64,000 nucleotides of DNA. It comes from Candidatus Omnitrophota bacterium (GTDB lineage: Bacteria; Omnitrophota; Gorgyraeia; Zapsychrales; Fredricksoniimonadaceae). Positions 12,228 through 61,865 of this stretch are shown here, in pieces. The notes under the pieces were generated by a model, which saw only the letters and a program-made list of their open reading frames with translations, was not told the origin of the DNA and made no database searches. The stretch is from the NCBI GenBank assembly GCA_028865345.1, contig JAGWKL010000009.1, positions 7,382 through 71,381 on the forward strand, written 5' to 3'. Both the position numbers and the translations under genes were made by a program. How positions within the stretch are numbered: the stretch's first letter is position 1; every line of letters starts with the position of its first letter.

Positions 12228-12258
12228 AGGGCCAATCTAAGGATATCGACAGAACAAT

Positions 12259-40433: not shown

Positions 40434-40443
40434 GAGTCTCTGC

Positions 40444-41835
40444 GTGATATCATTCCGTCCCAAAACTGCATATGATAAAGATGCCGTCCTGGTGCTTTTG
40501 GGCTCAGGACAAACCCATCCGCGCTTTAAAAAAGACCTGGAAAAGGGGGAAGTTTATCCTGTGATAGAAAAAGGCAGGGTATTTTTATTTGCCGGCCTTG
40601 GGAACACCGATAAATTGTCTTTGACGGATTTGCGCATCCAGGTACGCAAAGCCCTTTTGTCAGGTTATCTTAAAAAAGCCAGAAGTGTTGAGATTGTCCC
40701 TCACAGCAAGAATGATACAGCCATCATTTCCATTATTGAGGGCGTTGCCATCGGCACCTATGTCTGGGATAAATATAAATCCAGGGACAAAGAAGATAAA
40801 ACGGTCAAGGATAAACACATTACCATCAATGCTGAACCCAAGAAAGCCTTCCTTGATGCGGTCAATATCTGCCAGGGGGTAAGCCTGACCCGCGATCTTG
40901 TCAATGACAACGCCGACACCATCACGTCGGACTATTTGGAGAAAACGGTGCGCGGACTTATTAAAGGCCATAAGCCCGCCCGCCTGGAAGTCTTAAACCG
41001 CAAAGAACTGAAAGCCCGGGGCCTCAATCTTATCCTGGCGGTCAACCAGGCGAGCAACAAGGAGCCCAAGCTCATCATTGTCCGCTATGACGGCGCCAAA
41101 AAGAACGAAGGCTACACCGCCATCATAGGTAAAGGCATGACCTTTGACACCGGCGGCCTGAATTTAAAGCCTACCGGAAGCATTGAAACGATGAAAATCG
41201 ACATGGCCGGGGCCGCTGCTGTTTGCGGCCTGTTAAGAAATGCGCTTGCCCTGAAGATAAAAAAGAACCTTCTTTTTGTCCTGGGCGTTGCTGAGAATTC
41301 CATCGGTTCCGCGGCGTATAAACCCGGCGATGTGCTCACAGGCTATGCCGGCAAATCTGTTGAGATCGGCAACACCGATGCCGAGGGCAGGCTGGTGCTG
41401 GCCGATGCTTTTGCCTATGTTGTCAAGAATTATAAGCCTTCTAAAATGATAGACCTGGCGACGCTGACAGGCGCTTGTGTGGTGGCCTTGGGATTCGATT
41501 ATTCCGGCTTGTTTTCCAACAGCGATGAGCTCGCCCGTGAATTGATGGAAGCCTCCAGGAAAACAGATGACAGGGCCTGGCACATGCCCCTTTATCCGGA
41601 AATCAAGGAATATATCAAGTCACCCATTGCGGATATAAAAAATACCAGCAATATCAAGGGCGCAGGGGCCTGTACGGCCGCAGAATTTTTGCACCAGTTC
41701 ACCGAAGGCACCACCTGGGCCCATCTGGACATCGCCGGCACTTCCTACGCGGACGGCCATGGCCGCATGTATTACGGCCACGGGGCCACCGGCGCAGGGG
41801 TGCGCTTGTTGACGCATTATCTATTGCACAATTAG
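40444..41835 (+). CDS. pepA: Leucyl aminopeptidase (M17)
   Basis: NTDAEGRLVLADA is the M17 signature. Confidence 0.85.
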   Translation: MISFRPKTAYDKDAVLVLLGSGQTHPRFKKDLEKGEVYPVIEKGRVFLFAGLGNTDKLSLTDLRIQVRKALLSGYLKKARSVEIVPHSKNDTAIISIIEGVAIGTYVWDKYKSRDKEDKTVKDKHITINAEPKKAFLDAVNICQGVSLTRDLVNDNADTITSDYLEKTVRGLIKGHKPARLEVLNRKELKARGLNLILAVNQASNKEPKLIIVRYDGAKKNEGYTAIIGKGMTFDTGGLNLKPTGSIETMKIDMAGAAAVCGLLRNALALKIKKNLLFVLGVAENSIGSAAYKPGDVLTGYAGKSVEIGNTDAEGRLVLADAFAYVVKNYKPSKMIDLATLTGACVVALGFDYSGLFSNSDELARELMEASRKTDDRAWHMPLYPEIKEYIKSPIADIKNTSNIKGAGACTAAEFLHQFTEGTTWAHLDIAGTSYADGHGRMYYGHGATGAGVRLLTHYLLHN

Positions 41836-41841
41836 GAAACT

Positions 41842-43230
41842 ATGGATTATCGCATTGAAACCGATAGTATGGGGGAGATCAAGGTCCCTGCCGATAAATA
41901 CTGGGGCGCCCAGACCCAGCGTTCACTGGAGAATTTCAAGATCGGCACAGACAGGTTCCCCAGAGAAATGATCAAGGCGCTGGGTATCCTTAAAAAGGCG
42001 GCCGCATTGACGAATAAAGAACTTAAGACCCTGACCGCGGAGAAGGCGGATTTGATCGTCCGCGCGGCTGATGAAGTGATCGGCGGGGAGCTGGACCGTC
42101 ATTTTCCGCTCGTGGTCTGGCAAACCGGTTCAGGCACCCAGACCAACATGAATGCCAATGAAGTGATCGCCAACCGCGCTATTGAACTATCCGGGGGAGT
42201 CATGGGCAGTAAAAAACCCATTCATCCCAACGACGATGTCAATAAGGCCCAGTCTTCCAATGACACTTTTCCGACGGCCATGCATATCGCCGCCGTTGAA
42301 GAGCTCCACCGGCGCCTGATTCCAATGGTCAAAAAGCTGTGTGAGGCCTTACAAAAAAAAGAAAAAGAATTTCAGGACGTCATTAAGATCGGGCGCACGC
42401 ATTTGATGGATGCGACACCCTTGACGTTGGGGCAGGAATTTTCCGGTTATGTGCAGCAGTTGACCGGAGGCCTGGAACGCATTGAGGCATGCCTGCCGCA
42501 CCTTTATGAATTGGCATTAGGAGGGACCGCTGTCGGCACCGGGCTTAACACGCACCCTCAGTTTGCCGTCAAGGCCGCGGCCCAAATAGCGCAGTTGACC
42601 GGCAAACCTTTTAAAAGCGCCAGGAATAAATTCGAGGCCCTGGCTTCCCATGACAGCCTGGTGTTTTTAAGCGGGGCATTGAACACCCTGGCTGTTTCCT
42701 TGATGAAGATCGCCAATGACGTCCGTTGGCTGGGTTCCGGCCCTCGTTGCGGCATCGGCGAACTGCACCTGCCGGAAAACGAGCCTGGTTCGTCGATCAT
42801 GCCGGGCAAGGTCAACCCTACCCAATGCGAGGCCATGACCATGGTCTGCGTGCAGGTCTTCGGCAATCATGCGGCGGTGACCGTGGCCGGCTCCAACGGA
42901 AATTTCGAATTGAATGTTTATAAACCTGTCATCATTTTCAATTGTCTTAATTCCATACGGCTGCTCGCAGATGCCTGTGAAAGCTTCAGCGACAATTGCG
43001 TCACAGGCATCGAGGCCAACAGCATCAACATCAAAAAGCACCTGGATGATTCCCTGATGCTGGTGACGGCCTTAAATCCGCATATCGGCTACGACAACGC
43101 CGCCAAGGTCGCCAAAAAAGCCTTCGCGGAAAACATCACCCTTAAAGAGGCCGCCGTGCGTTTGGGATTGTTGACCGCTGAAAAATTTGATGCCGCCGTC
43201 CGTCCGCAGGACATGATAGGTCCCCATTAA
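41842..43230 (+). CDS. fumC: Fumarate hydratase class II
   Basis: [17 protein letters not shown] is the fumarase/aspartase signature. Confidence 0.9.
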
Positions 43231-43233
43231 AAT

Positions 43234-44337
43234 ATGATCATCGGTGTGCCGAAAGAGATCAAAAACAACGAATGCCGCGTGAGCCTTTTACCCGTCGGAG
43301 TTGAGGCCCTGGTACGTGCGGGCCATCAAGTCCTCATCGAACATAATGCCGGGGCAAACAGCGGTATCTCCGATGTGGATTATCAAACCGTGGGGGCGGA
43401 GATCGTTGATGTGGCGTCAGACGTGTTTGCCCAGGCCCAGATGATCGTCAAGATCAAGGAACCTTTGCCATCCGAATACAAACACCTTAGGAAGGACCAG
43501 ATTGTATTTACATATTTTCATTTTGCCGCCAGTCGACCGCTCACCGAAGCCATGCTGCAGGCCAAGATCACGGCCCTGGCTTATGAGACCCTGCAGACCG
43601 AGCATGGGGAACTGCCGTGTCTGACCCCCATGTCCGAGGTGGCCGGACGCATGGCGGTGCACGAAGGCGCCAAATATTTGGAAGAGCCGATGCACGGCAG
43701 GGGGATTTTATTGGCCGGCGTTCCCGGCGTTTATCCGGCGGAAGTGGTCATTATCGGCGCCGGCGTCGTGGGTTCCAATGCCTGTAAAATGGCCGCAGGA
43801 TTAGGGGCCAATGTCACGGTCCTGGACATCAATTTAAACCGCCTGAGGTATTTGGAAGAGATCATGCCGCCCAATGTCCATACCCTGATGAGCAATTCCC
43901 ATAATATCCGGGAAGCCGTGCTTAAGGCAGATTTGGTCATCAGCTCTGTGCTTATCCGCGGGGCCAAATCGCCGTGCGTGATCGACCGCAAATTGGTTTC
44001 CCAGATGAAAAAAGGGGCCGTGATCGTTGATGTGGCCATTGATCAGGGCGGGTCCATCGAAACATCCCAGCCCACGACTCATGACAACCCTGTTTATGTG
44101 GTCGACGGGGTGGTGCATTATTGCGTCACCAATATGCCCGGGGCGGTCGCCCGTACCAGCACCTGGGCCCTGGCCAACGCGACATTTCCCTATATCCTGA
44201 AAGTCGCCAACGACGGCTACAGGAAATGGGCCAAGGAGTCCCATGAGATCCGCACGGCCCTGAACATGACGGAAGGGCATTTGACCATCGCCGAGGTGGC
44301 CGAGACCTTTGACATTCCTTATAAGAAATTTACTTAG
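43234..44337 (+). CDS. ald: Alanine dehydrogenase
   Basis: MIIGVPKEIK matches AlaDH, and the NAD-binding motif GAGVVG is present. Confidence 0.9.
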   Translation: MIIGVPKEIKNNECRVSLLPVGVEALVRAGHQVLIEHNAGANSGISDVDYQTVGAEIVDVASDVFAQAQMIVKIKEPLPSEYKHLRKDQIVFTYFHFAASRPLTEAMLQAKITALAYETLQTEHGELPCLTPMSEVAGRMAVHEGAKYLEEPMHGRGILLAGVPGVYPAEVVIIGAGVVGSNACKMAAGLGANVTVLDINLNRLRYLEEIMPPNVHTLMSNSHNIREAVLKADLVISSVLIRGAKSPCVIDRKLVSQMKKGAVIVDVAIDQGGSIETSQPTTHDNPVYVVDGVVHYCVTNMPGAVARTSTWALANATFPYILKVANDGYRKWAKESHEIRTALNMTEGHLTIAEVAETFDIPYKKFT

Positions 44338-44382
44338 AATAAATCAATTGACGGCAAGAATTGAGAAATTACAATAACTAAT

Positions 44383-44736
44383 ATGACATCTTACGAAGAT
44401 CGCCGGGACAGTGTACGGGCCAGACGCATCATCACCGTCCGCCACCGTCTCGTTAAACACAACAACCGGAAAATTGATTCCATCTGGCAGCTGGCCACGA
44501 CAGAAAATATGTCCTTGAGCGGCCTGCTTTTTGTCAGCGCCTTGCCGTACCATCCCGATGACGTTATTGAGCTTAATATCATCATGTCCGGTGTCATCGA
44601 TATTTTTAACGGCTTCGGCAAGGTCGTCCGGGTGATCCGCAATAAAGGCGGTTACCATAAGGTGGCCGTAAGGTATGTCGATCTCAAAGCCAGGCGCCGG
44701 CCGGCTAAGTCTATTCTTACCTCAACCAAACAATGA
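44383..44736 (+). CDS. PilZ domain protein
   Basis: An RxxxR motif (RRDSVRARR) and an NxSxSG motif (NMSLSGL) are present. The stop overlaps the next ORF's ATG. Confidence 0.6.
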   Translation: MTSYEDRRDSVRARRIITVRHRLVKHNNRKIDSIWQLATTENMSLSGLLFVSALPYHPDDVIELNIIMSGVIDIFNGFGKVVRVIRNKGGYHKVAVRYVDLKARRRPAKSILTSTKQ

Positions 44737-46319
44737 AAAAAACTTCTTTTGTTGTCTGGCTCATCCTGGTGGTGGAATTCCTCTATATTTTTGCCTTTCT
44801 GATGAATTATGATTTCGCCTGGGTCAACCAGGAGAAATTCGGCGTACACCAATGGATCCTCTCCAATGGTTCCCAGTGGCATAAAGAAGATTGGACCAAA
44901 TTCCTCAACATCAATGTGATCGAATGCAACCCTTACCGTTTATCACGCCCGCTGTCCAATTTTGTCGAAGTTGTTGATACGAAATTCCGGGCCTGGTTAT
45001 GGAATTTTATACCCCCGCATCCGTCACTTTCCCTGCAATGGCCGTTCATGTTCATCCTGTTGCCCTGGCTTTTATATCAAACCTTTGTGAATATGGGGTG
45101 TTATCCTTTCATGGCCCTGGCCGGGGCCTGCCTTTATATATCTTCTCCCGGGTTTTTAGGGCCTTTGGTGATGCTTTTTCATCCTGCCAAGAGCCTTGCC
45201 AATTTCTTTGGCGTCCTTTCCATGTATTTCTTTTCCATAAACTACAAGCGAGAGTTTTCCTTACCCAAAAATGAAGAAGCCTCCCGCCAAAGGCGGGGCG
45301 GGGGAGTGTTATTCATAGCCGGATTGCTGGCTTTATACCTGGCGTTTATTTCCGATGAAACAGGACTTTATATGTATGTGGTCGTACTTTTACTTTTTTT
45401 CCGTTTATGGCTGCGCTCATGGCAAGAGAAACGCTACGGAATTTTTGCCGGTTTATTGGCCATGCCGATTCTCTATTGGGCCACGATCAAAGTTTTCCTG
45501 CCATATCTGCATTGGGCCGTCATGGGCGTAAAGATCAATTTGGCCAGTTATGAATCCTACCCGTCTTTAAAATCCTTATTTTGGCCGAATTGGCATTTTC
45601 TCTGGCTGAATACAAGGTTCCTGTTTGCCGACCATCCTCATCTTTTGATCAATTACAAGCAGCTGTTAAGCCATCCGTTGATATTAAGCATTCAGATCGT
45701 TTATGTGCTGCTGTTTTTATGGATGGTATTTTTGTTTTTTAGATCAGCGCTTAAGAATAAAAATGATCCCCGGCAAATAGACTTTCTTAAATTAACGGTC
45801 ATCGGAGTTTTACTGTTGCTCGGGTATTGTTTTTTTCAGACCTTCCAATTGTCCAAGAACGCCAAAGCATGGGGAATTTGGTGGTACGGCAGCCTTTTTT
45901 CTTTGATCTATACCGTGGCCCTGGTTTTCTTTCTGCAATTTATTTGTTCTCATTACCAATGGCTGCGTAAATGGTCGGCTGTAATTATTTTCATCTTTGT
46001 ACTTAATACTATGACTTTCACCACCTACCGTCTTGCAATTTGTAAAATGCAGAATCTCAACCGTACCGCTTACAGCTTCATGGACATATTCAAAGGCAGG
46101 GTGGATCCGTACGGATTCGACTTTGACGAATTCTTTGATAAAAGCTATTGCAGACAAATGTATACCTATATGTATTGGCTGCATTGGAAGGGCCTTCCCG
46201 ATAATATTGATCCCCGGAAAATAAATAAATGCTTCTCCAGGTATTTAAGCAGTGATCTTTACTTTTTTACAGAAGAAGATGGCTATCTGCCGGCAGAACT
46301 CGGTCAGCCGCCGTCCTAA
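44733..46319 (+). CDS. Large polytopic membrane protein, hypothetical
   Basis: It is 528 aa with more than 10 predicted TM helices and is translationally coupled to the PilZ gene. Confidence 0.5.
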   Translation: MKKTSFVVWLILVVEFLYIFAFLMNYDFAWVNQEKFGVHQWILSNGSQWHKEDWTKFLNINVIECNPYRLSRPLSNFVEVVDTKFRAWLWNFIPPHPSLSLQWPFMFILLPWLLYQTFVNMGCYPFMALAGACLYISSPGFLGPLVMLFHPAKSLANFFGVLSMYFFSINYKREFSLPKNEEASRQRRGGGVLFIAGLLALYLAFISDETGLYMYVVVLLLFFRLWLRSWQEKRYGIFAGLLAMPILYWATIKVFLPYLHWAVMGVKINLASYESYPSLKSLFWPNWHFLWLNTRFLFADHPHLLINYKQLLSHPLILSIQIVYVLLFLWMVFLFFRSALKNKNDPRQIDFLKLTVIGVLLLLGYCFFQTFQLSKNAKAWGIWWYGSLFSLIYTVALVFFLQFICSHYQWLRKWSAVIIFIFVLNTMTFTTYRLAICKMQNLNRTAYSFMDIFKGRVDPYGFDFDEFFDKSYCRQMYTYMYWLHWKGLPDNIDPRKINKCFSRYLSSDLYFFTEEDGYLPAELGQPPS

Positions 46320-46322
46320 CGC

Positions 46323-46997
46323 ATGACCGAAATTAGAATAGATAAGCTGATCAGAAGCCGGCGCAAGACCATCGGCCTGCAGATAACCGGTGATGCCAAG
46401 CTTATTGTCCGGGCCCCGCTTTTTGCTCCCCAAAACTTCATCGAAGAGCTTATCCAACGCAAACAATCCTGGATCAGGGCCAAACAGGACTTTTATAAGG
46501 TGCGGCAAAGGCAGGTACGGAGATTCATCCCTGGGGAAGAATTCCTGTTTTTAGGCCAAAGTTATCCGTTGGTTGCGGCAGAAGATCTGCCCAAAGCGAT
46601 CGTCTTTGATGGTCATTTAAGGATTTCCAGCCTGGTTTTGGCCAATGCGCGCCAACATCTGGAAAGCTGGTACAAAGCCCAGGCTTTTGAATATATTGCC
46701 CAAAGAGTGCAGCATTTTGCCAAATTGGCAGGGTTAGGCTATAAATCCATAAAGATCAATAGGGCAACAACGCGTTGGGGGTCCTGCGGGCCTAAAGATA
46801 CCCTGAACTTCAGCTGGAGGCTGATCATGGCACCGTGCGATGTGGTGGATTATGTGGTCATCCATGAGCTGATGCACTTAAAGCAGAAGAACCATTCGCG
46901 TAAATTTTGGGCAGAGGTGGCAGGAATGATGCCGGAGTACAGGCAACAAGAGCGCTGGCTTAGGGCAAAGGGGCATTTGCTGGCATGGCCTGAATGA
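46323..46997 (+). CDS. YgjP/DUF45-like metal-dependent hydrolase (HExxH)
   Basis: It has a C-terminal HELMHLKQKNHSRKFW motif. Confidence 0.7.
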   Translation: MTEIRIDKLIRSRRKTIGLQITGDAKLIVRAPLFAPQNFIEELIQRKQSWIRAKQDFYKVRQRQVRRFIPGEEFLFLGQSYPLVAAEDLPKAIVFDGHLRISSLVLANARQHLESWYKAQAFEYIAQRVQHFAKLAGLGYKSIKINRATTRWGSCGPKDTLNFSWRLIMAPCDVVDYVVIHELMHLKQKNHSRKFWAEVAGMMPEYRQQERWLRAKGHLLAWPE

Positions 46998-47085
46998 ATA
47001 TCATTTCCCTGTATAACAACTTAACATAACATATATTATAGGAAGAACTTTTAAAGAGAACTAAGGGGCTGGAATTGATCCGTTT

Positions 47086-48300
47086 TCATGGCTTAACGCA
47101 GCTAGTCAGCTCCTTCGCCCATTGTTTTCCTTTCGTATTTAATAAGTTTTCCATACCTTTTAATCTGTCTTGAGTCCTTTCTTTTAGAGATAGTTCTTTA
47201 ATCAAGGTAAGATGTCTTTTTAAGAATGCTATAACTAAATTTAAGCTTCCCTTTTCCTTTGAAATTATGTTTCCCAATCGTTCACCATTGTAGTCAAAGC
47301 AACTAAAAAAAGCTTGGTACTTTCTTTTGAGAAATAGCTCTTTTTCGATAGTTACATCATCGTAAAAAAAATTGAAAATTTTTATCAAATCTGAATTTCT
47401 GAAATATCCAACCTGGTAAGCCCTTGCATCTGCAAAAGCGTAAATTGGTTGAACGCTCGTTTTAGCATAATTGGACAGGCTTTTACATATGCCTTCAATA
47501 AACAGTTTAGAGCCTGAAACAAAGCTTACGCGCCATCGATTAGATGAAAAGCTGATGCTGCCGTCACCATCAAAATATCCGCGAATAAAGTGACTATATA
47601 AAATTTCAGGTAAAACAGGAAATTTATCATCTAAGCTTTTATTAGGCGTTAACCCCAAGGCAAGCAAGTCATTAATCATGACCTTATTGCCTATAGTTAA
47701 AGTATATAACTCTTGTTTAACTTGTCTAGTAATTTTGTGCTCTGAATCCATTAAATCTCTAATTTTATATAAAATTTCCGGTTCTTTTTGACTAATGGAA
47801 AATTGATTAAGCTGGTTGCCCAAATTCCCATCTGAATAGATAAAACCAAGCACATAGGCCATTTCTGGCGTTTGCTGTTTAAAAAAAGCCTCGTTTATTG
47901 AACTGAACCCAACATTTTTGCCTTTCTTTTTTGCCTCTCCCCTTGCTGCTGATTTACTCCGTATAGCAAGGCCGTACTTTCTAAGCAATAATAGAATATA
48001 AGCCCTTGAACAATTATGAAGCTTAGCAATGTCCCCCATCGACATTTTCTGTTCACAATATAATTCCTTGAGCCGATCTTCAGTTAATTGAGAAATGATG
48101 GCGCTTTTGACCCGTTGTTTTTGAGTTGCAGAAATCTTTTTTTTAATACTCGACAAATGCTTTAGATAAGACCCATGATCATTTCTATCAAAATCCCCTG
48201 TTCCTCTGATTACAAATTTATGGTAACAGTTTCGACAATAGCCCTTGGAATGATGTGGCTTATTCTGTAAGCATCCCTTGCAAGTGGTCAAAGTTTGCAT
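47086..48300 (-). CDS. Free-standing double-motif LAGLIDADG homing-endonuclease-like protein with N-terminal Zn ribbon and HTH
   Basis: It has CKGC...CRNC, the HTH MSMGDIAKLHNCSRAYILLLLRKYGL, and LAGLIDADG motifs YVLGFIYSDGNL and IRGYFDGDGSISF about 100 aa apart. Confidence 0.6.
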   Translation of the reverse strand: MQTLTTCKGCLQNKPHHSKGYCRNCYHKFVIRGTGDFDRNDHGSYLKHLSSIKKKISATQKQRVKSAIISQLTEDRLKELYCEQKMSMGDIAKLHNCSRAYILLLLRKYGLAIRSKSAARGEAKKKGKNVGFSSINEAFFKQQTPEMAYVLGFIYSDGNLGNQLNQFSISQKEPEILYKIRDLMDSEHKITRQVKQELYTLTIGNKVMINDLLALGLTPNKSLDDKFPVLPEILYSHFIRGYFDGDGSISFSSNRWRVSFVSGSKLFIEGICKSLSNYAKTSVQPIYAFADARAYQVGYFRNSDLIKIFNFFYDDVTIEKELFLKRKYQAFFSCFDYNGERLGNIISKEKGSLNLVIAFLKRHLTLIKELSLKERTQDRLKGMENLLNTKGKQWAKELTSCVKP

Positions 48301-48336
48301 AAAACACCCTTAAATACAAAATACATCTATTTCAGC

Positions 48337-48654
48337 CTACTTAACAGGCTGTAATTCATAATGTACGCCTTCATTTTCTTGTAATAGATGGATCACTTCA
48401 AAAAGATTATTAGCTGTTGGATTTCCGGTAACACTAAACATGCGCATCAGGCTTTTGGGGTCTTTATGGGTCAATCTAGACAGTTTTTCAAAGCCAACAG
48501 TCGCATTAATATAATCACGTAACAACGCTTTACCTGTTTTAATATCTCCTGAAAGCATGGATTCAATACTTTCACGAAGAATTCCCTCACGGAATTCCTT
48601 GTCTTGTAAGGCTCGAGCCTGAACTGTTTCCTTGAAATTACGCGTAATTGTCAT
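48337..48654 (-). CDS. higA: HTH antitoxin (HigA-like addiction-module antidote)
   Basis: It is a 105-aa Cro/C1-type HTH located downstream of the toxin. Confidence 0.7.
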   Translation of the reverse strand: MTITRNFKETVQARALQDKEFREGILRESIESMLSGDIKTGKALLRDYINATVGFEKLSRLTHKDPKSLMRMFSVTGNPTANNLFEVIHLLQENEGVHYELQPVK

Positions 48655-48659
48655 CGCTT

Positions 48660-48983
48660 TTAACCTTTTTTACGCCGTTTATATTCATCCCAAAGCAAAT
48701 AGGCATGGTCGATATCTTTTTGTTGACGTTTCTTTGTTCCGCCCCCTAAAAGAATGATCAATTTATCCCCATCTTTACCAATATAAACCCGGTAACCAGG
48801 CCCCCAGTCAATAATCACTTCTTGAAAAGCACCGTTAATCGGTTTTAAATTCGAACAATTCCCCTGCTCAATACGAGTCAAATAAACATTCACTTTATTT
48901 GCTGCATGAGCATCAAGGCTATTAAACCAGTCAGCAAACGGGCTTTTTCCATCTATAGTTATATATTCCTCAACTATGATCAT
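48660..48983 (-). CDS. higB: RelE/HigB-family addiction-module killer protein
   Basis: It is 107 aa, toxin-first, and separated from higA by a 5-nt gap. Confidence 0.7.
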   Translation of the reverse strand: MIIVEEYITIDGKSPFADWFNSLDAHAANKVNVYLTRIEQGNCSNLKPINGAFQEVIIDWGPGYRVYIGKDGDKLIILLGGGTKKRQQKDIDHAYLLWDEYKRRKKG

Positions 48984-48995
48984 GCCCTACCTATA

Positions 48996-49015
48996 AAGTA
49001 ACATATAAGTTACTT
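48996..49015. promoter_or_regulatory. Perfect palindrome AAGTAAC-N6-GTTACTT immediately upstream of higB; likely TA operator
   Basis: The 7-bp arms are exact reverse complements, 12 nt upstream of the toxin start. Confidence 0.5.
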
Positions 49016-49167
49016 ATATGCAAATTAAATTGATTAAAAAATTGGGGGAATTTGATTGTTTTTATTGCTGTCCGCTTGGGGGGGAAGATCGATGAAAAGA
49101 TTATACAAGCCAAACCACCGCCGCACCAGAGAAAAACTACCTTGCGACTTCATCTCAAGGGCTGGCC

Positions 49168-50100
49168 TCAAGAAAAGGAGGCACAAATCCCCTTCGGGGC
49201 TTTATGTCCCCTTTTCTTGTGCGGGAAATGGCTGGGCCCGTAGGGCCGTAACCAGTATTTGAGCTTGCACTTTCTTACCCGTGTACCATACCTGAAATGA
49301 TCGGCGAACTGGTGGATGAGATACCAGAACTCCTTTTCCGTCAGGTCCTGTTTCATGGCGTTGACCATCCTGGAAGTGATCACCAGTCTCTTGGGGTTGG
49401 CCGGTGTCCAGTGGTCAAAGGTCAAATACCATGGACTGTGCTCATCAAATAGATCCAGCTCCATGCCGGTGTAATAGCAGATATAACCGTACTTGCGTAT
49501 ATAGTCCCAAATGGCTTTTCTGGCCTTTAAGGGGAAACGTTCCATGACCATGCGCTTGGCGATGGTCGAACACTGCGGGCAATATTTGTGCCATCTATTG
49601 GCTGTGGGCTGGCGGCCGCAACCGGCACAACACCGCTGTCCATGAAGGAGCTTTGGCAATCTGTACCAATGTTTCAGATGCCTCTTTTTGACCTTCAGAT
49701 GTTTTCTTCTGTGATCGTCGAGTGCGATCACATAATACCTAAACTCTTTTTGGGTCATGTCCTGCTTCATGTCGTTGACGATGGCGGCACAAATGACAAT
49801 CTTGATGGGATCTCCCGGCCTCCAATGGTCAAAATCAAGATACCAGGGGCTTGTTTCATCGTCTAACTCTAAAGCGACTTTTATGTAATAATCCCTATAG
49901 TATTGGGCACGGATATATTCCCGTACGCCCTGCTGGGCCTTGGCAGGGAATCTCTTTCTATGCATCCGGCGGGTTGTTTTGAGGCAGTCCCGGCAATAGA
50001 TGGACCAGTTGGAAAAGACCTTTTTGCGGCCGCACATGCAGCAGGTTTTTAAAGGTTTTCTGGAGAGGTGGTGAGCTTTAAGGGGCATATTGACATGCAC
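49168..50100 (-). CDS. Internally duplicated Zn-ribbon protein with HNH-like DHW-P...N-MKQD motifs (two ~150-aa repeats)
   Basis: Repeat 1 has CCMCGR..YCRDC and SPWYLDFDHWRPGDP...VNDMKQDMTQKEF. Repeat 2 has CCAGCGR..YCPQC and SPWYLTFDHWTPANP...VNAMKQDLTEKEF. Confidence 0.55.
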   Translation of the reverse strand: MHVNMPLKAHHLSRKPLKTCCMCGRKKVFSNWSIYCRDCLKTTRRMHRKRFPAKAQQGVREYIRAQYYRDYYIKVALELDDETSPWYLDFDHWRPGDPIKIVICAAIVNDMKQDMTQKEFRYYVIALDDHRRKHLKVKKRHLKHWYRLPKLLHGQRCCAGCGRQPTANRWHKYCPQCSTIAKRMVMERFPLKARKAIWDYIRKYGYICYYTGMELDLFDEHSPWYLTFDHWTPANPKRLVITSRMVNAMKQDLTEKEFWYLIHQFADHFRYGTRVRKCKLKYWLRPYGPSHFPHKKRGHKAPKGICASFS

Positions 50101-50118
50101 TTAATTTTAAAAGTGCGC

Positions 50119-50442
50119 CTACCTCTTAAACACAAACGCAAGAAACATGCCGGCATACAGGCAAAAAACCAACATGCAGATGAAAGAAATTTTCTTTCTT
50201 TGAGCGATCAACGAATTTAATCCCGGGTCCTTCAAAGCAAGATACTCTTCCTTGTCCTCAAAAGCTTTCATGAGAGCTTTATCCGCTTTCGAAGTGCTGG
50301 GTACCCAGGAAGGCTTATTCAGCTTTTCCCATACCGAAGGATGCTTGAATTGCAGATATTTGACAAACCTCAAATTAAAATAAACGACCAAAAAAAGGGT
50401 AATGACAAGGACAACAAACAAAATCTGCAAAAAAATGCTCAT
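50119..50442 (-). CDS. Small two-TM membrane protein, hypothetical
   Basis: It has N- and C-terminal hydrophobic helices flanking a charged core. Confidence 0.45.
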   Translation of the reverse strand: MSIFLQILFVVLVITLFLVVYFNLRFVKYLQFKHPSVWEKLNKPSWVPSTSKADKALMKAFEDKEEYLALKDPGLNSLIAQRKKISFICMLVFCLYAGMFLAFVFKR

Positions 50443-50465
50443 ACTAAAACCTCCTCATTGAAACA

Positions 50466-51212: not shown

Positions 51213-54200
51213 TTATTGGATAAATTTCAGAAGATTGGGAATGGGCGTAACGCCCACTATGACGCCATACAACCCCTGGGCTTTTAAAAGCATGGCCCCG
51301 AGCGCCTTATTGCTGACGATAGGGCCGAACAAGGAGCCCTGGCGTTGGAGGGTTATATTTGTAAATTTGATACCTCCCGGGTTTGCCATGGCCGCGTCGG
51401 CCCCCTTTAATGTTTGCAATTTGTTTTCGAGGTCTCTAACAAGCCCGCCGACAAACCGCCTGAGGCGGGCTTCTTTTTGCTCCACTGACAATACTTCATC
51501 ATTGTCCAAATTCATGATCCAATCATGCAAGATCCCCGATGCGCCGGAATGGGCAAACAGACCCTCCAGAAACTTTTGGAAATTGCGCCCGAGATAATAT
51601 GACAACAAGGCATTATAGCCAAACCTGTTTTCCAAACTCTTCTCCTCTGCTATAAATGCCTTGATCCCGCTGCCCTTTTCCTCAAAGACCTCCGGCACTC
51701 CAATGACGCTGAACTTGAACGATTTGACGCCGTTGCGCCCCGTATTCAATATCCCATTGATGGTTTGCTGGTCGTCCCCTAAGGCCTCAACGATCCTTTC
51801 CTGTGTATCTTTGTCCAGTTTGGCTTCTCTCTTGCGATGCTCAATGACCATTTCATATTCCTTCAGATAAGCCGCTGAAGTCAGCAAATAATAGGCGATC
51901 CGGTTTAATCGCGGCCCCAAGGCCGCGTTTTGGTAAAACTCCAAATGCTCCGGATCTTTGTTCCATAACCCGATCAATGGTTTATAGACCGTATCCAGCC
52001 ACGCATGGGAAGTGTCTTGTCTGGGCATCAGAATATTCCCCTTGCCGGGGTGGTTGAAATCCACAGGGATGCCCTGATCAGCCAGAACACCGGTCCTCCA
52101 TGTTCCTGAACCCACGTATGCCCCATTGGCTGTTCCGTCTTCTTCCCATGCCCCGTTAGCCTCGTTATCATCCGAGTCCTGGATCTCCACATCGAGCGCC
52201 GCCAAAAAAAGGATCTTCTCTTCCCGTGTGATGCTCTGGACAAACTGAAAACTTCCCGGAAAATCCTGGGGCCTCTTGTTTTTTTCATCAGCGATCTTGT
52301 TTTCCAAACTTTTCAATTCAGCCGCAAGTTTTTCGCTGGCTTCCGTATGCTGGTTGTTCCCCAATAAAACCACGTCATAACCGAGTTGAACCAACATCCA
52401 AATGTTGTCGTCCGTCAAAGCCCTTTGCCGGCCGGCCTTTTCCGGCACAAGGCGGCGGACATAGCCCAACACCGGCCTGTCCAAATCCACGTGCACAAAG
52501 CCGCCGTTGGCGGTCATGATCCCGGCCGCGTTAAGCCTTACTTTGCTTGCTCTTTTTGTCAATGCCTCCTCGCGGGCCGTCGGCCTTTCAAAATCAGCGT
52601 TCTGGGGGATCACATTTTCCTGCTGGAGCTTTTTGAATTCTTCACGGTAGACGGCCGCCATTTCTTCCGGCACCGCGCCGTTTGTCACGGCAACCAGGAC
52701 CGAATTGGGATCATTGCCCCTCATGCGGTCCGCATGGCTGTTGGCCACCGCCCCGAAGAAATCGGCCAGTCTTCCGCCTCCGCTGGTATAATCGATATAC
52801 TGGACCCCGCGCCTAAACGCATTGATATAAAAATCCTTGATCCCCATCATGTGTTTTAGAAAAACATCCACCGCCCATTTAACGTCACCGTTGCCTCCGC
52901 GGTTTAAATCGGTATGCGTGGTATATGCCCATACAATATTTTTAACCGCATCATCCGAGCCGAACCTGCTCATCGTGACCGCTTCCAACGGCCCGAATTG
53001 CCCGTCATTACCATGTACGATGGCCGGTTCCCAGGTCTGTCCCTGCTGTTCCATGGCCTGCCTTCTGTTCGTTTCCAGCCGTTTGATCAACTCGGCGCTG
53101 GCAATGTTCAAAAATGCCATGGACTCTTCTTTACTGACAGGGTTGTTTTTTGCGCTGTAGTTATAAAGCATCTTTGTATAATATGAACTGCCGTCCGCCT
53201 GGACATCGCGGATCAGATAGGTCGCGATACCGTTCTTGTCGATGCCCCTGGCCACCCTCACGTGCACCTGTTTATACCCATTTCCGTCGCTGTTACCGAT
53301 CTGGATATCAAAATCATCAAAATCATTATTCAGGTCCCTGATACCCTGATTGGGGGCCGCATAATCCAGGGGATTGCCGTTGATATCTAATTGATAGTCC
53401 GGTTCGATATAGTTGACATCCGCGCCCAGATCATGCATCCCTTTTCCATGGAATTCCATGACCGGGCCCAGGCCCCCTGTCCAGTAATGGATCTCTGCGG
53501 CCAGCATGTAGATCGCCCGCCCCTGCAAATTCGGCCTTTTGTCCGCCAGCCATGTCTTACGGTCAAAAATGCGGTTCATCAAAAAGATCTTATCGACCAA
53601 TTCCGGCTGTTTTTTGCCTTTGTACTTTTTTTGAAGGGCCTTGATCAGATCGTCTTCCTGAGCTTTGGACAACAGCGTGATCGCCTTTAATACCGGCCAT
53701 GCCGACTGCACAGGATATAACCTTTGGGATTGCACATAAGCAGAATATTTGTCAATAAAGGCATAAAGCCCTGCCCGGTTAAATTTCCCTCTCTTATTCA
53801 AAAGCCCTTTAAGCTCATCCAAAAGACCCCAAGGCCTATTGAGGTCATACCAGTTGGAATATGATTCGGCCGGGGATGGATTAAAAACGACCTGGATATC
53901 CACGTCATTTTCTGTGCCGGCAGCCATGGCCAGGTCGCCATCGGAAGCCCTGGTAAAATGCACGGGCTGATCCACAAAACCGCCCGAAAAATACTTGCGC
54001 GGTATGGGCTGGTTGGAAAAACGGTCCGTCTCTTCTTTGATAAAGTTGAAAACGCCTCTTTTATAAGAAGCCAGATAACGGTGATAGATAAGCTCCTTGT
54101 TTTTGGGGTTATTGAGGTCGATCCCCGAGACTTTATCGCGGCCGGAAAAATCTTTATTGAGGATGGACTGTTTAAAAGCCTCCTGGTACCATTGCGCCAG

Positions 54201-54356
54201 GATGAGCGAATAGAACACCTGTCTTACTCTCGCAAAATTCTTATTTTCATTCACGGCTTTTTCTACGGCAGGAAGCAGGACCTCACGTAAAACCTGTCTG
54301 GATATGTCCTTGGTCTGGGCATTGCCGGCTTGTCCATGGCTTGCATTGCCAATCAC
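51213..54356 (-). CDS. Large (1047 aa) protein with a diverged alpha-glucan phosphorylase (GT35)-like core and an N-terminal extension of about 300 aa
   Basis: TGGLGPV...GKGMHDLG resembles SGGLGVLAGDHLKSASDLG. HGNDGQ resembles H.NEGH. AYTTHT resembles AYTNHT. The C-terminal GGIKFTN resembles the PLP-Lys GNMKFMLNG. Confidence 0.4.
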   Translation of the reverse strand: MIGNASHGQAGNAQTKDISRQVLREVLLPAVEKAVNENKNFARVRQVFYSLILAQWYQEAFKQSILNKDFSGRDKVSGIDLNNPKNKELIYHRYLASYKRGVFNFIKEETDRFSNQPIPRKYFSGGFVDQPVHFTRASDGDLAMAAGTENDVDIQVVFNPSPAESYSNWYDLNRPWGLLDELKGLLNKRGKFNRAGLYAFIDKYSAYVQSQRLYPVQSAWPVLKAITLLSKAQEDDLIKALQKKYKGKKQPELVDKIFLMNRIFDRKTWLADKRPNLQGRAIYMLAAEIHYWTGGLGPVMEFHGKGMHDLGADVNYIEPDYQLDINGNPLDYAAPNQGIRDLNNDFDDFDIQIGNSDGNGYKQVHVRVARGIDKNGIATYLIRDVQADGSSYYTKMLYNYSAKNNPVSKEESMAFLNIASAELIKRLETNRRQAMEQQGQTWEPAIVHGNDGQFGPLEAVTMSRFGSDDAVKNIVWAYTTHTDLNRGGNGDVKWAVDVFLKHMMGIKDFYINAFRRGVQYIDYTSGGGRLADFFGAVANSHADRMRGNDPNSVLVAVTNGAVPEEMAAVYREEFKKLQQENVIPQNADFERPTAREEALTKRASKVRLNAAGIMTANGGFVHVDLDRPVLGYVRRLVPEKAGRQRALTDDNIWMLVQLGYDVVLLGNNQHTEASEKLAAELKSLENKIADEKNKRPQDFPGSFQFVQSITREEKILFLAALDVEIQDSDDNEANGAWEEDGTANGAYVGSGTWRTGVLADQGIPVDFNHPGKGNILMPRQDTSHAWLDTVYKPLIGLWNKDPEHLEFYQNAALGPRLNRIAYYLLTSAAYLKEYEMVIEHRKREAKLDKDTQERIVEALGDDQQTINGILNTGRNGVKSFKFSVIGVPEVFEEKGSGIKAFIAEEKSLENRFGYNALLSYYLGRNFQKFLEGLFAHSGASGILHDWIMNLDNDEVLSVEQKEARLRRFVGGLVRDLENKLQTLKGADAAMANPGGIKFTNITLQRQGSLFGPIVSNKALGAMLLKAQGLYGVIVGVTPIPNLLKFIQ

Positions 54357-55111
54357 AGTCTTTGGGCCTGATAATCTTCGTCCAGCATCACCTTCAAATG
54401 GGCATGAAGGATATAAACCGTGTCCCCCTTTTCATACACCGTCGCCTTCTCGGGAAGTATCCATATCTTATTGATGACATTAACCGGGATCTGGGTGACG
54501 CCGAATTTCCGGTAGGCCTCATCATAGACCTTATTCCAAAACTTCTTGCCCAGACGGCTTTCAGGATAAATAAGAGAGGCCCCCACCTGCTTGAGGATAT
54601 AATCTTCAGCCAGAAGGTCACGGCCTAGCTGGGTCTTGTTCAATACATCGGGAATGATATGGTTCTTCTGGACCGGTGATAAGTTGACCCAAAGGTCTTT
54701 TTCAGGCACCGCCAAAGCCGCCAGGAAATAATTCACCAGGCGCTGTGACGTTTTATGAAAATCTTCAGCGTTTAATCTTTGGTCACCCGGATCAACGATA
54801 AAATCAAAAAGGAAAGGATCATCAGGATGTATCTTCAGGCCTTTGATCAAAACAGGCCTGAAAGGTGGACTTAAATTGACCCTGACCCCTGGTTTTGGCA
54901 AAAGAAACGGTAAGGTGGAAAAATCATCGGACGCCGATTGGGCCCGGGAAGACGGCAGATATATTGACGAGGCGATAAAATTAAATATTATCCAAATGCA
55001 TAAAATGCGTCTCACATTTGTCATGGAAGCCGCCGGCATAGTTAATAATTGAATAATAGGGCCTACTGAAAAGATAGCATATCGAAGATTAAAAAACAAA
55101 TTTTCAAACAA
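54353..55111 (-). CDS. Hypothetical exported protein co-transcribed with the large phosphorylase-like gene
   Basis: Its stop overlaps the downstream ATG. The N-terminus has a hydrophobic signal/anchor segment. Confidence 0.5.
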   Translation of the reverse strand: MFENLFFNLRYAIFSVGPIIQLLTMPAASMTNVRRILCIWIIFNFIASSIYLPSSRAQSASDDFSTLPFLLPKPGVRVNLSPPFRPVLIKGLKIHPDDPFLFDFIVDPGDQRLNAEDFHKTSQRLVNYFLAALAVPEKDLWVNLSPVQKNHIIPDVLNKTQLGRDLLAEDYILKQVGASLIYPESRLGKKFWNKVYDEAYRKFGVTQIPVNVINKIWILPEKATVYEKGDTVYILHAHLKVMLDEDYQAQRL

Positions 55112-55506
55112 AAAAATGCGGTATAACGTTAAGGCGGGATTTATTGAACTTAGATAAAAGGATCGAAGTTGCCGGCACCTCCTATCCCTCGAGGGGCATA
55201 TTTACATCCCTTTTTTTCACATTCCATGTCTTTATCCGAACATTTTTTTATGCGCCAGGAGATGGCATCTTTTCTGCCTATTTCCGAGACAGCCTCTTTC
55301 ATAAGAGTGATCGTTTTACTTTTAAAATTACAATGAATATTAACAAATTGTGTTTTGTACATTTTTCTACCCAAAAAAACAGCCTTTTCTCCCAAACGGA
55401 AGAAAAGGCAACGGCTTTTCTTTGACTTGTCCTTATAACAATAGTCCTAACAGGAACCTATGTCAAAAGTATTTTTATAGGGTGTCAATGCCAAACTTGT
55501 ACCATA

Positions 55507-55929
55507 TCAAAGATCAAACGATTTTAGCAATTTGGCCGTGGGGTATGTTTCTAAATGAGGGATATTTTCAAAATCTTTATCATTGGACCAAATAGGTATG
55601 CCCTTAGCAAGTGCTAAAGCTGCCAGAGGAATGTCATCCATATCTCTTTGACCAATATATGTTTTAGCCTGAGTTAATTTAGATTTATATTCATCTTCTC
55701 CAATTATCTTGACTGGCAGCATTTTAAATTGCACCCATAAAGCTTTAAGATCGATATGGTATTTTGCGCCGAGAAAAGGAAGATAATCCTCAACCTCTCC
55801 GGCATTAAACTCGGTGGTCAGGATTTCAAGGTTTGTTCGGGTAAAAACCTTCAGCGCGGCATGACCAATAACTGCAGAAAGTAAAACATTACTGTCTGCT
55901 GCGACGCTTTTTAAAGACTTTGAAGTCAT
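55507..55929 (-). CDS. vapC: PIN-domain toxin
   Basis: It has an N-terminal acidic DSNVLL and later conserved Asp residues. Its length is typical for VapC. Confidence 0.75.
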   Translation of the reverse strand: MTSKSLKSVAADSNVLLSAVIGHAALKVFTRTNLEILTTEFNAGEVEDYLPFLGAKYHIDLKALWVQFKMLPVKIIGEDEYKSKLTQAKTYIGQRDMDDIPLAALALAKGIPIWSNDKDFENIPHLETYPTAKLLKSFDL

Positions 55930-56155
55930 CTAAAATTTCTTTCTCAGTTACTTTTTTCTGACTTAATGCTGAAGCGATTCTGCCGCCCATTTGAGCCACG
56001 AATTCCTTCTTTAACTCAATAGGAAGCTTGGCAGATTCTTCTAAAGGCAGAAAACAGCCCACCATTTTGCCATGGTTGGTCACCAAAACCATTTCTCCTT
56101 CTTTGCCATACTCTGCCAGGGAACTTCTGAATTCACGAATAGAAGCTAATTTCAT
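55889..56155 (-). CDS. vapB: Antitoxin of the VapBC/Phd-YefM type
   Basis: It is an 88-aa protein immediately upstream of, and overlapping, the PIN gene. The start was taken at the internal ATG of MKLASIREF. Confidence 0.55.
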   Translation of the reverse strand: MKLASIREFRSSLAEYGKEGEMVLVTNHGKMVGCFLPLEESAKLPIELKKEFVAQMGGRIASALSQKKVTEKEILDDFKVFKKRRSRQ

Positions 56156-56250
56156 AATTTTTACCTCCCGAGCCCAACTATAGCACACAAAATAAAATGT
56201 GTCAAATATGTGTACACATTATTCTTGTGTTTAGGCTGTAGCTTGTCCTT

Positions 56251-56502
56251 TTACTTGGCCAATCTATTGTAAAGCCAGGCAAAGACAGCACAACCGATAC
56301 CGGCATCCAAAAAGGCCCAGGCTGCGCCAAAGATGCTTCCGGGAATAGTTGCAGAGTAACCGATATAGAAAGTCCCCAGCGCGGCCACAAATTTGGCGCA
56401 ATAACCGCAAGTCATCGCCGAAATACCCATGATGAAAACCCCGGCACTCCAAAGGATGCCCCCTGCCAGCCCAAAAGCTTTTATATCCAGTTTTCCGTTC
56501 AT
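56251..56502 (-). CDS. Small Gly-rich two- or three-TM membrane protein
   Basis: The product is 83 aa and hydrophobic. Confidence 0.45.
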   Translation of the reverse strand: MNGKLDIKAFGLAGGILWSAGVFIMGISAMTCGYCAKFVAALGTFYIGYSATIPGSIFGAAWAFLDAGIGCAVFAWLYNRLAK

Positions 56503-56550
56503 GTTCCCCCCTTTTTATTTGCTTCGGTATGATCTTAGTAAGAATTTGGC

Positions 56551-57024
56551 TTGGTATTACAAAAGTTGTATAATAAAGATGCCATGAGATTAAAAATTAT
56601 TATATTTTCAGCTTTTTTCATGCTCATAGCCCTTCCCGCTTCCTTTGCCTGGCGGGATGCGGACGGCTATTGGGGCCCAAACGGCTATTGGCATTATTAC
56701 GGAAGCGGACGCGACCAGCCTTATTCCTATTACATCGATGAATATTATTCTCCCGGATTTGTCCATTATCCGTTGGTCGACCCGGACTTTATTGCCTACG
56801 TCAATACTACAGCGGTGCCTGCGGTTTCCCCCCTGGCCCCGCAACTACAGATCCCTGTTGCGCCCCCTCAGCAAAATGAATTTACGGTCAATATCCCCAA
56901 TGACCACGGAGGCTATACGCCTGTTCTTATAAAAAGATCGGGCAATGGATACACCGGCCCCCAAGGTGAATTTTATTACACCTTTCCCGCCGTGTCGCAA
57001 CTTAAGTTGATGTACGGAAAATAA
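56551..57024 (+). CDS. Secreted Tyr/Pro-rich hypothetical protein
   Basis: It has a signal peptide (MRLKIIIFSAFFMLIALPASFA) and a low-complexity Tyr-rich mature region. Confidence 0.45.
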   Translation: MVLQKLYNKDAMRLKIIIFSAFFMLIALPASFAWRDADGYWGPNGYWHYYGSGRDQPYSYYIDEYYSPGFVHYPLVDPDFIAYVNTTAVPAVSPLAPQLQIPVAPPQQNEFTVNIPNDHGGYTPVLIKRSGNGYTGPQGEFYYTFPAVSQLKLMYGK

Positions 57025-57027
57025 TTT

Positions 57028-57468
57028 TTATTTTTTCTTCGGCGCCGCTTTTTTCTTCACAGCGGTCTTTTTAGCTGCTGCCGGCTTTTTCTTGGGGCCG
57101 GCCTTGGGTGCTTGCTTGGGCGCCTGGATAAAAGAAGGGGCCATATTGGGATTATGGTCCTCCGCCCTGATGGGGCCATTGCCCCTTTTTCTTAAAGCAA
57201 AGCATTCCTTGCAATATACCGGACGGCCTTCGGCAGGTTTAAAAGGCAGGGATGCCTCTTTGCCGCAGTCGGCACAGGTGATCTTGTACATGACCTTTGC
57301 AAGACGCTGCTGTTGAGCGTTCATGGCCGGATTTTGAGGCTGGGACATCAACACGGGGGTGGCCATCACGCGGCCCATGACAAGGTCCAGTTTTTTGTCC
57401 AGCGAAGAGATCTGTTCCTGAATCTTGGAGATCAATTCCAAAATTTCTGATTCTGTCTGTGCCTTCAT
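57028..57468 (-). CDS. MJ0042-type zinc-ribbon protein with N-terminal coiled coil and Lys/Ala/Pro-rich histone-H1-like tail
   Basis: ITCADCGKE...PVYCKECF is a C-x2-C-x17-C-x2-C ribbon. The C-terminus is PKKKPAAAKKTAVKKKAAPKKK. Confidence 0.55.
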   Translation of the reverse strand: MKAQTESEILELISKIQEQISSLDKKLDLVMGRVMATPVLMSQPQNPAMNAQQQRLAKVMYKITCADCGKEASLPFKPAEGRPVYCKECFALRKRGNGPIRAEDHNPNMAPSFIQAPKQAPKAGPKKKPAAAKKTAVKKKAAPKKK

Positions 57469-57947: not shown

Positions 57948-57950
57948 AAG

Positions 57951-58217: not shown

Positions 58218-58239
58218 ACAAAAGAAAAGCCTCTGCCCC

Positions 58240-59226: not shown

Positions 59227-59241
59227 GATATCAACCGTTGA

Positions 59242-61853: not shown

Positions 61854-61865
61854 AATTCCTTCTGC

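Follow-up and report, generated by a model that had tools for sequence, protein, structure and literature searches.

A free-standing LAGLIDADG endonuclease gene beside the predicted chromosomal dif site of an Omnitrophota bacterium, and its independent accessory neighbours

We analysed a stretch of 64,000 nucleotides (nt) from a Candidatus Omnitrophota bacterium (GenBank assembly GCA_028865345.1, contig JAGWKL010000009.1, positions 7,382 to 71,381; hereafter the window), in which a run of minus-strand genes between 47,000 and 50,450 had been predicted from the sequence alone to form an AT-rich islet of selfish-element-like genes. Proteins encoded in this region are identical to NCBI entries of a metagenome-assembled genome with locus tags KGJ09_066xx. 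The run comprises a gene for a LAGLIDADG endonuclease that also carries a zinc ribbon and a helix-turn-helix (HTH) region, a toxin-antitoxin pair, a gene for a protein with two Zn-ribbon/HNH-type units and a gene for a small predicted membrane protein (Table 1). The original prediction missed the decisive feature of the locus, a dif site (the site of dimer resolution by XerC and XerD) that lies directly against the endonuclease gene.

The site occupies the 88-bp gap that separates the convergent ygjP and endonuclease genes, 39 nt beyond the stop codon of the latter. An alignment of junctions revealed a near-perfectly conserved 29-mer that lies 3' of the endonuclease gene in all gene-bearing loci, is kept in the three gene-less loci L094, L097 and L099 and gives dif when extended by six bases; a promoter, a small RNA and a hairpin were rejected as explanations of this 29-mer, Rfam yielding nothing and the inverted ends showing no covariation. 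In its 11-6-11 layout, the window sequence (TCTTCCTATAA-TATATG-TTATGTTAAGT) is identical at 23 of 28 positions to the experimentally defined dif of Bacillus subtilis (ACTTCCTAGAATATATATTATGTAAACT) and at 20 of 28 to that of Escherichia coli (reference dif sequences from PMC3025954), with 10 of 11 positions matching in the XerD arm, and it is single within the window, where it scores 44.8 bits with a position weight matrix (PWM) compared to 10.5 for the runner-up site. Long open reading frames (ORFs) are on the plus strand in 37 of 39 cases to the left of dif and on the minus strand in 12 of 13 cases to its right, and gene strand likewise flips at dif in all 14 loci (the window and 13 further loci with the same 11-6-11 site). 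Since gene orientation converges there, the position would be the replication terminus, and we conclude from sequence and gene order that the 28-mer is the putative chromosomal dif at that terminus.

In five other Omnitrophota loci, close homologues of the endonuclease (58–71% identity) are encoded at the corresponding place on the chromosome, bordering a conserved PNPOx-XdhC-PPIase-...-YgjP/MauE block, and dif follows 26–228 nt past the endonuclease stop codon in L004, L006, L010, L090, L091 and L092. This conserved position is explained by the fact that dif abuts the endonuclease gene. We also considered YgjP, whose orthologues flank dif in L006, L091, L092 and L097, as the anchor or target. 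The two genes are indeed tail to tail here and in L006, but MauE stands between them in L091 and L092, Fic takes the place of YgjP in L004, and YgjP is present in none of 80 distant loci, leaving dif as the real anchor.

These 80 loci, from metagenomes and with relatives of the endonuclease at 31–46% identity, were surveyed together with the close loci for the pattern ATAA-N6-TTATGTNAA (at most one mismatch), located at most 600 nt past the stop codon and on the same strand. Among homologues that share the N-terminal HTH region, dif lay 7–289 nt downstream in 18 of 24 evaluable loci, compared to 0 of 43 among homologues that match the LAGLIDADG core only (Fisher p=1.4e-11). The position is that of the last gene on the XerC-arm side of dif, with the endonuclease gene reading toward the site; in one further HTH-type locus (L027) a dif-like site is found on the other strand. 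The HTH-LAGLIDADG clade holds this dif-adjacent position in many unrelated bacteria, an association that had gone unremarked: our literature search found no report linking dif or Xer to LAGLIDADG or homing endonucleases, and none of a dif-side home site for any homing endonuclease. In at least seven distant loci (L012, L013, L016, L017, L019, L020 and L035), a conserved ORF of 64–71 amino acids (aa) of the XRE/HTH_3/HTH_17 type (...VSPRTIQRW.KG...) separates the endonuclease stop codon from dif, with longer spacing between gene and site; among the database homologues, some endonucleases include such an XRE/HTH_17-type domain in the same chain.

The LAGLIDADG identity that had been proposed for the 404-aa protein is borne out by matches to PF14528 (E=4.9e-9) and to phrog_4645 'endonuclease' (E=1.3e-44 over aa 48–331). 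A profile of 33 homologues run against the Protein Data Bank (PDB) finds the archaeal enzyme I-Tsp061I (2dch) at 6e-8, plus intein endonuclease domains, and a Foldseek search with an AlphaFold2 (AF2) model (pLDDT 84) returns 7qsu (1.6e-8), 2dch/I-Tsp061I, intein homing endonucleases, I-DmoI, I-OnuI and WhiA (3hyi). The defining feature of such enzymes is a pair of LAGLIDADG helices, each with a metal-binding acidic residue at its end (PMC3384342); in the alignment of the 33 homologues, D157, G158, D244, G245, D246 and G247 are invariant. K173 (in 'SISQKE') and R256 (in 'WRVSF') are candidates for the basic residues that correspond to K43 and K130 of I-DmoI, and K221 is invariant. With both catalytic acidic residues retained, the endonuclease is probably active.

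The Pfam scan detected no Hint/intein domain in the endonuclease and Rfam no intron or ribozyme nearby, and the gene has its own ATG, 36 nt past the antitoxin stop codon. The gene is therefore free-standing, as had been predicted. The accompanying claim that such proteins are uncommon in bacteria has to be dropped, since more than 1,000 homologues were found at E<=1e-3 and the architecture is thus not rare. Phage relatives (24–34% identity) carry the annotation 'intron-encoded endonucleases', so that the architecture belongs to truly mobile enzymes. A phage origin was rejected for the endonuclease and for the tandem HNH-type protein, neither of which has close relatives in IMG/VR contigs, the phage homologues being distant only. 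With free-standing or intron-encoded enzymes such as I-DmoI, I-Tsp061I and the HTH-LAGLIDADG enzymes of Staphylococcus Twort-like phages and Bacillus phage 0305phi8-36, the endonuclease shares two catalytic LAGLIDADG motifs, a monomeric two-domain fold, an N-terminal HTH add-on and an AT-rich, patchily distributed gene. It differs from them in that its gene lies outside any intron or intein, on a chromosome and steadily beside dif, and in its extra N-terminal four-cysteine zinc ribbon.

Table 1. Features at the dif locus, with positions in the window.
Feature	Position	Strand	Basis
YgjP-like metallopeptidase gene, last gene of the left replichore, XerD-side flank of dif	46323..46997	+	PF01863, E=4e-56
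Predicted chromosomal dif site (XerC/XerD dimer-resolution site), 28 bp	47019..47046	-	identity to reference dif sites
XerD arm of dif, TTATGTTAAGT	47029->47019	-	
Central TATATG of dif	47035->47030	-	
XerC arm of dif, TCTTCCTATAA	47046->47036	-	
Allele-replacement tract: XerC arm, spacer, C-terminal LAGLIDADG domain	47041..47700	-	window vs L001/L002
Free-standing LAGLIDADG homing-endonuclease gene, 404 aa	47086..48300	-	PF14528, phrog_4645, fold matches
Helical C-terminal extension of the endonuclease, aa 335-404	47089-47298	-	
Conserved 25-mer m2, ATGGGCGAAGGAGCTGACTAGCTGC, encodes endonuclease tail ...QWAKELTSC	47098..47122	-	recurrence near dif
XerC-side segment that varies between the window and L097	47125..56826	.	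synteny comparison
LAGLIDADG motif 2 (...GYFDGDG, D244/D246)	47554-47592	-	alignment of homologues
LAGLIDADG motif 1 (...GFIYSDG, D157)	47824-47862	-	alignment of homologues
Three-helix HTH of the endonuclease, aa 74-108	47977-48081	-	alignment
Zn ribbon of the endonuclease, C7/C10/C22/C25	48226-48282	-	alignment
Putative antitoxin/regulator, 105 aa, downstream partner of the toxin	48337..48654	-	position, size, NCBI name
RelE/ParE-superfamily toxin (HigB/Gp49-like), 107 aa, first in operon	48660..48983	-	TIGR02683
Perfect palindrome CATATAAGTAACTTATATG	49002..49020	.	19-37 nt upstream of toxin ATG
Tandem-repeat Zn-ribbon + beta-beta-alpha-Me (HNH-type) nuclease-like protein, 310 aa (NCBI 306 aa)	49168..50100	-	
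Small predicted membrane protein, 107 aa	50119..50442	-	no significant family match

The gene is patchily distributed among relatives. In the sister species represented by L097/L098 (YgjP 71% identical), the locus is syntenic on both sides (window 39,543–46,997 with L097 1–10,672, and window 56,827–63,376 with L097 13,173–20,670), yet the endonuclease gene is absent and only Fic and small ORFs, about 2 kb in all, lie between the syntenic blocks. The earlier view of the islet as accessory, selfish-type DNA rather than housekeeping DNA is supported. The dif loci of three relatives (L094, L097 and L099) lack the gene, and in L090 it is truncated. The original prediction had named the same genes at the same locus in relatives, with native composition, as signs that would speak against its reading: the endonuclease gene is indeed found at the same locus in relatives, but its composition is not native, lying 6–11 GC points under its flanks in six of six genomes.

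Within the window, GC content measured in 500-nt windows falls to 33–38% across 47,000–49,000, compared to ~50% elsewhere (64-kb background 0.46–0.56), and is already back at 47–49% at 49,000–50,000. Measured per gene against the 39 long ORFs of the window (GC 0.508 +/- 0.039; GC at third codon positions, GC3, 0.617 +/- 0.070), the compositional outliers are three genes only, ~4 standard deviations below this baseline: the LAGLIDADG gene (GC 0.352, GC3 0.326), the 105-aa antitoxin-like gene (0.381, 0.311) and the toxin gene (0.377, 0.315). The tandem Zn-ribbon gene at 49,168–50,100 is native in composition (GC 0.493, GC3 0.621), and the AT-richness of the membrane-protein gene at 50,119–50,442 (GC 0.39, GC3 0.52) stems mainly from its amino-acid content. 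As only three co-oriented genes deviate, the compositional island measures ~2 kb (47.09–48.98 kb) and not 3.45 kb, so that the predicted drop is real but shorter than had been thought. Flanking direct repeats, which the original prediction had suggested looking for, were not found at the islet, and neither were tRNA genes or an integrase.

Alleles of the endonuclease gene also vary between strains. The window has near-identical counterparts in the contigs of GCA_028871075.1 (L001) and GCA_028870875.1 (L002), the three near-clonal assemblies agreeing at 100% between 44,000 and the central region of dif, and again over most of the sequence past 49,400, with ~22 scattered mismatches at 50.2–52.8 kb. 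Over ~47,041–47,700, the window and L001 (= L002; L001 10725–11061) are unalignable or strongly diverged, and the far end of this tract is the conserved inter-domain linker of the endonuclease (GLTPNKSLD). The alleles encode 404 aa (window) and 347 aa, the window allele resembling P0002/P0003. As judged from this alignment, the tract is a natural swap of one putative DNA-recognition half between strains, bounded by dif, and a domain swap between otherwise identical strains bears on how meganuclease specificity evolves. Two further mosaic blocks lie within the islet, at 48,200–48,900, where L002 diverges by ~6%, and at 49,000–49,400, where the window and L001 differ. The L002 contig terminates within the toxin gene (locus 12167–12452), its toxin-antitoxin region being ~6% diverged and its flanks identical; this spot is strain-variable and breaks assemblies.

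The XerC arm itself differs with the presence of the gene: it equals the consensus ACTTCCTATAA in three of three gene-less loci and is one to three bases off in seven of seven gene-bearing loci (p=0.008). On the same side of dif, the 25-mer m2 recurs 80–180 nt from the site, also in the gene-less L094, L097 and L099; it is either left over from the gene's 3' end or belongs to the ancestral dif flank. We rejected m2 as a cleavage target, as it is present in the gene-bearing window and L001 and hence not unprotected. Reconstruction of an empty site was abandoned because the region upstream of the start codon shares no sequence with gene-less loci; a comparison of L004 with L094 likewise matched in dif only. 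A scan of genome contigs for YgjP gave a single distant, non-syntenic locus (L009), and exact peptide patterns from the window YgjP recovered no copy of this species from the GTDB representative set; either the GTDB species representative is without the YgjP region or the region is unassembled there.

The dif-adjacent position of the gene, its family-wide association with the site, its patchiness, foreign composition and mosaic alleles and its intact catalytic motifs lead us to favour, at about an even chance of being right, a free-standing homing-endonuclease lineage at home on the XerC-side flank of dif, with independent selfish and defence cargo alongside. We infer that this flank is the homing site of the lineage. 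The endonuclease would cut chromosomes without the gene at or beside dif, perhaps by recognition of the XerC arm together with the neighbouring flank, and the gene would then be copied in through recombinational repair from incoming gene-bearing DNA. The toxin-antitoxin pair, the tandem HNH-type gene and other neighbours would be independent residents that accumulate in the variable XerC-side zone, some of them perhaps co-converted together with the endonuclease gene. Since dif is conserved universally and chromosomes cannot lose it, the site would serve such an enzyme well as a target.

To our knowledge, dif is among the most conserved of bacterial non-coding sites, and we know of its exploitation so far only by elements that hijack the Xer recombinases. 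A widespread dif-side endonuclease clade would add a second, nuclease-based route of exploiting the terminus, and could explain why toxin-antitoxin and defence genes gather on one side of dif in these lineages. It would also supply natural monomeric meganucleases, including naturally domain-swapped alleles, whose target is guessable from genome context. The gene together with the 28-mer would further be a practical terminus marker in fragmentary genomes of uncultured phyla with weak GC skew, such as Omnitrophota.

Several observations weigh against homing at the dif flank. GC skew has the same sign on both sides of the site (-0.013 left, -0.055 right) and is weak window-wide, and 6 of the 24 HTH-type loci have no dif within 600 nt. 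Endonuclease identity between relatives (58–63%) equals or exceeds that of the flanking YgjP (42–56%), which would also fit long vertical retention under selection. The XerC-arm contrast comes from 10 loci that are phylogenetically non-independent. No clean empty-site junction was found, and all three gene-less dif loci retain m2, a possible relic of the gene. The window being a metagenome-assembled contig, the strain mosaics are possibly in part assembly chimeras. Finally, dif is intact in gene-bearing genomes, and dif itself is therefore not an unprotected target.

In a stronger form of the proposal, which we put forward only tentatively, the endonuclease would recognise the dif sequence as such, with the variable XerC arm and the adjoining flank as the most plausible target. 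The site for resolving chromosome dimers would then be the homing target, and carriers would be immune through their own working variant of the XerC arm, as the contrast between gene-less and gene-bearing loci in this arm would suggest. If so, repeated cutting and gene conversion at the terminus would drive the swaps of recognition domains and also cause toxin-antitoxin and defence cargo to collect next to dif. Such a lineage would represent a novel class of mobile element that exploits dif by a nuclease instead of Xer recombination.

Clearly less probable than homing at the dif flank, in our estimate, is an element resembling the integrative mobile elements exploiting Xer (IMEX), which would enter and leave by XerC/XerD at dif. 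The LAGLIDADG protein, or else the small HTH protein, would then serve as accessory or activation factor instead of as a homing nuclease. As in known IMEX (CTXphi, TLCphi, VGJphi and the gonococcal genetic island), foreign DNA lies against dif, variable genes accumulate on one side only, here that of XerC, and the allelic boundary falls in the XerC arm: the divergence between the window and L001 starts there, beside the region of Xer strand exchange, while the XerD side is 100% identical. The XRE/HTH_17-type ORF, which in at least seven distant loci stands between the endonuclease gene and dif, and the N-terminal integrase fragment upstream of the gene in L092 would also fit. A second dif-like site within 8–10 kb was, however, found in none of 10 loci (at most 13.8 bits by PWM, compared to 38–47 for the true site), the island proteins have no matches to phage structural or replication proteins, and neither the small HTH ORFs nor the endonuclease tail match XafT (DUF3653) in the Pfam scan. 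The conserved component is moreover a nuclease gene and not an attP site, and the conserved unit ends upstream at the start codon, beyond which neighbours are unrelated from genome to genome. As the replaced tract has its other end within the endonuclease gene, its exchange requires homologous recombination, which also counts against entry by Xer.

We regard it as unlikely that the protein is a domesticated LAGLIDADG enzyme, be it a factor that binds dif or the terminus or a nuclease that aids segregation or guards dif from Xer-exploiting phages. WhiA and HO set precedents for such domestication (PMC3384342), and WhiA (DUF199) shares the LAGLIDADG fold and an HTH domain with the endonuclease, besides being the Foldseek match noted above. 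The intact ORFs, the conserved catalytic and DNA-binding modules and the retention at one locus across species, at an identity equal to or above that of flanking host genes, would be expected of a host function. Yet the gene is absent from L097/L098, L094 and L099 and truncated in L090, whereas WhiA is universal in Gram-positives; its foreign composition persists, recognition-domain alleles are swapped among near-clonal strains, and the catalytic acidic residues, which WhiA has lost (PMC3384342), are kept.

We attach very little probability to the earlier proposal that the LAGLIDADG protein, the HigBA pair and the tandem HNH-type protein form one uncharacterised defence system. Their genes are co-oriented and tightly packed, and homologue neighbourhoods are rich in NACHT, SIR2, SLFN, Dcm-Vsr and PD-(D/E)xK; but the components co-occur in no other locus examined, their compositions differ, and PADLOC gave no meaningful match among the islet proteins (only a TPR model at E=0.011). 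Homologues of the tandem HNH-type protein sit in other defence-rich neighbourhoods (NYN, RelE/HTH, PD-(D/E)xK, SLFN; ORF6N, MazG, Dcm-Vsr; AAA_21, SLFN_AlbA_2) without a LAGLIDADG gene or this toxin-antitoxin pair. The upstream neighbour of the endonuclease gene differs per genome, being HigBA here, YhcG in L006, NACHT in L004, an integrase fragment in L092 and, in L090, a Gp49/HTH toxin-antitoxin pair with no detectable similarity to the window pair by tblastn. Because homologues of the islet genes are found separately, these genes do not make up a single system. Of the 'homing islet' that had been predicted, the accessory block and the free-standing endonuclease stand, and the unity of the system does not. 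As for the absence of any specific link, with the terminus as a permissive dump for horizontally acquired genes where the endonuclease gene landed by chance, many different accessory genes do adjoin dif in related loci, but 18 of 24 loci, down to 31–39% identity, agree in position, strand and distance to dif, as do 0 of 43 LAGLIDADG-core-only loci (p=1.4e-11), which strongly disfavours chance and makes it most improbable.

Among the neighbouring genes, the toxin matches TIGR02683 (90 bits, cutoff 62.85) and phrog_3445 'toxin' (7e-23), with a weak Gp49 match. It lies 5 nt from its partner, which is alike in composition, bears the NCBI name 'transcriptional regulator' and weakly matches phrog_4268 'transcriptional repressor' (E=0.022); the partner has no Pfam, NCBIfam or PDB match, even at E<=10. 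The predicted HigBA pair is thus upheld for the toxin, by TIGR02683 and the toxin-first order, while the antitoxin is assigned by position, size and NCBI name. The palindrome at 49,002–49,020 is likely the operator of the toxin-antitoxin operon. With modules of the HigBA and HI1419-HI1420 types the pair shares the toxin-first order, a RelE/ParE-fold toxin, a small regulator encoded downstream and, upstream, a palindrome as the likely operator, and it differs in that its antitoxin matches neither a HigA nor an HI1420 profile. The toxin is 93% identical to P0288 from another genome, and toxin (93%) and tandem HNH-type protein (89%) match proteins in genomes judged to have YgjP only 66–69% identical, which hints that both may have been exchanged horizontally.

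The tandem HNH-type protein belongs to a family of ~45 unannotated proteins, each with two tandem units that combine CxxC...CxxC with 'C.YTG..L...SPWYL.FDH..P....V.....N.MK.DL.E.EF'. Repeat 1 spans ~aa 17–150 and repeat 2 ~aa 155–290, and D229, H230, N247 and K250 of the C-terminal unit are invariant. The protein has the beta-beta-alpha-metal core, catalytic His and metal-ligand Asn/His by which such nucleases are recognised; it has no Pfam or NCBIfam HNH match among curated models and matches the PHROG endonuclease VII (2.3e-7) and HNH (3.4e-4) profiles weakly. The predicted duplicated Zn-ribbon/HNH-like protein is therefore a tandem beta-beta-alpha-Me nuclease as far as its architecture goes, but with its native composition it falls outside the AT-rich island and is an independent accessory gene. 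In comparison with PacI and DraIII, HNH type II restriction endonucleases that act as homodimers, it would be a single-chain pseudo-dimer, and it has no adjacent methyltransferase. A link of this gene to dif was rejected: 2–4.5 kb separate the two here and in L094, but in L093 and L095 there is no dif within 8 kb of the gene. At the 3' end of its ORF lies an inverted repeat (49169–49219), with 24-nt arms that are 83% complementary and a loop of 3 nt; indels distinguish this stretch from its L001 counterpart, and it gives the window protein a C-terminal tail past the family's conserved end ...RPYG.

Defence-type genes are also found on the XerC side of dif elsewhere: HATPase_c_3 with SIR2_2 in L099 (15122–18319), a NACHT NTPase in L004 (5396–7777) and a Dcm methylase with Vsr in L094 (10252–12655). 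In this lineage, genes of the defence type appear to accrete generally at the dif flank. Farther along the window, a second AT-rich patch of minus-strand genes (GC 0.35–0.39) at 54750–56800 carries, by the annotation of L001, a PIN_2 (VapC-like) gene with small partner ORFs, and falls within the variable XerC-side segment missing from the sister species L097. At 51213–55111 (minus strand) lies a gene for a very large protein with a Glyco_transf_5 domain (a 1,047-aa ORF here, 1,270 aa as called in L001), whose N-terminal region is found again, in one orientation or the other, close to dif in L091, L093 and L099. Far to the left, at 10147–10229 (plus strand), a c-di-GMP-I-GGC riboswitch aptamer (RF03167; 60.3 bits, gathering score 59) is located upstream of the ORF at 10320–11123.

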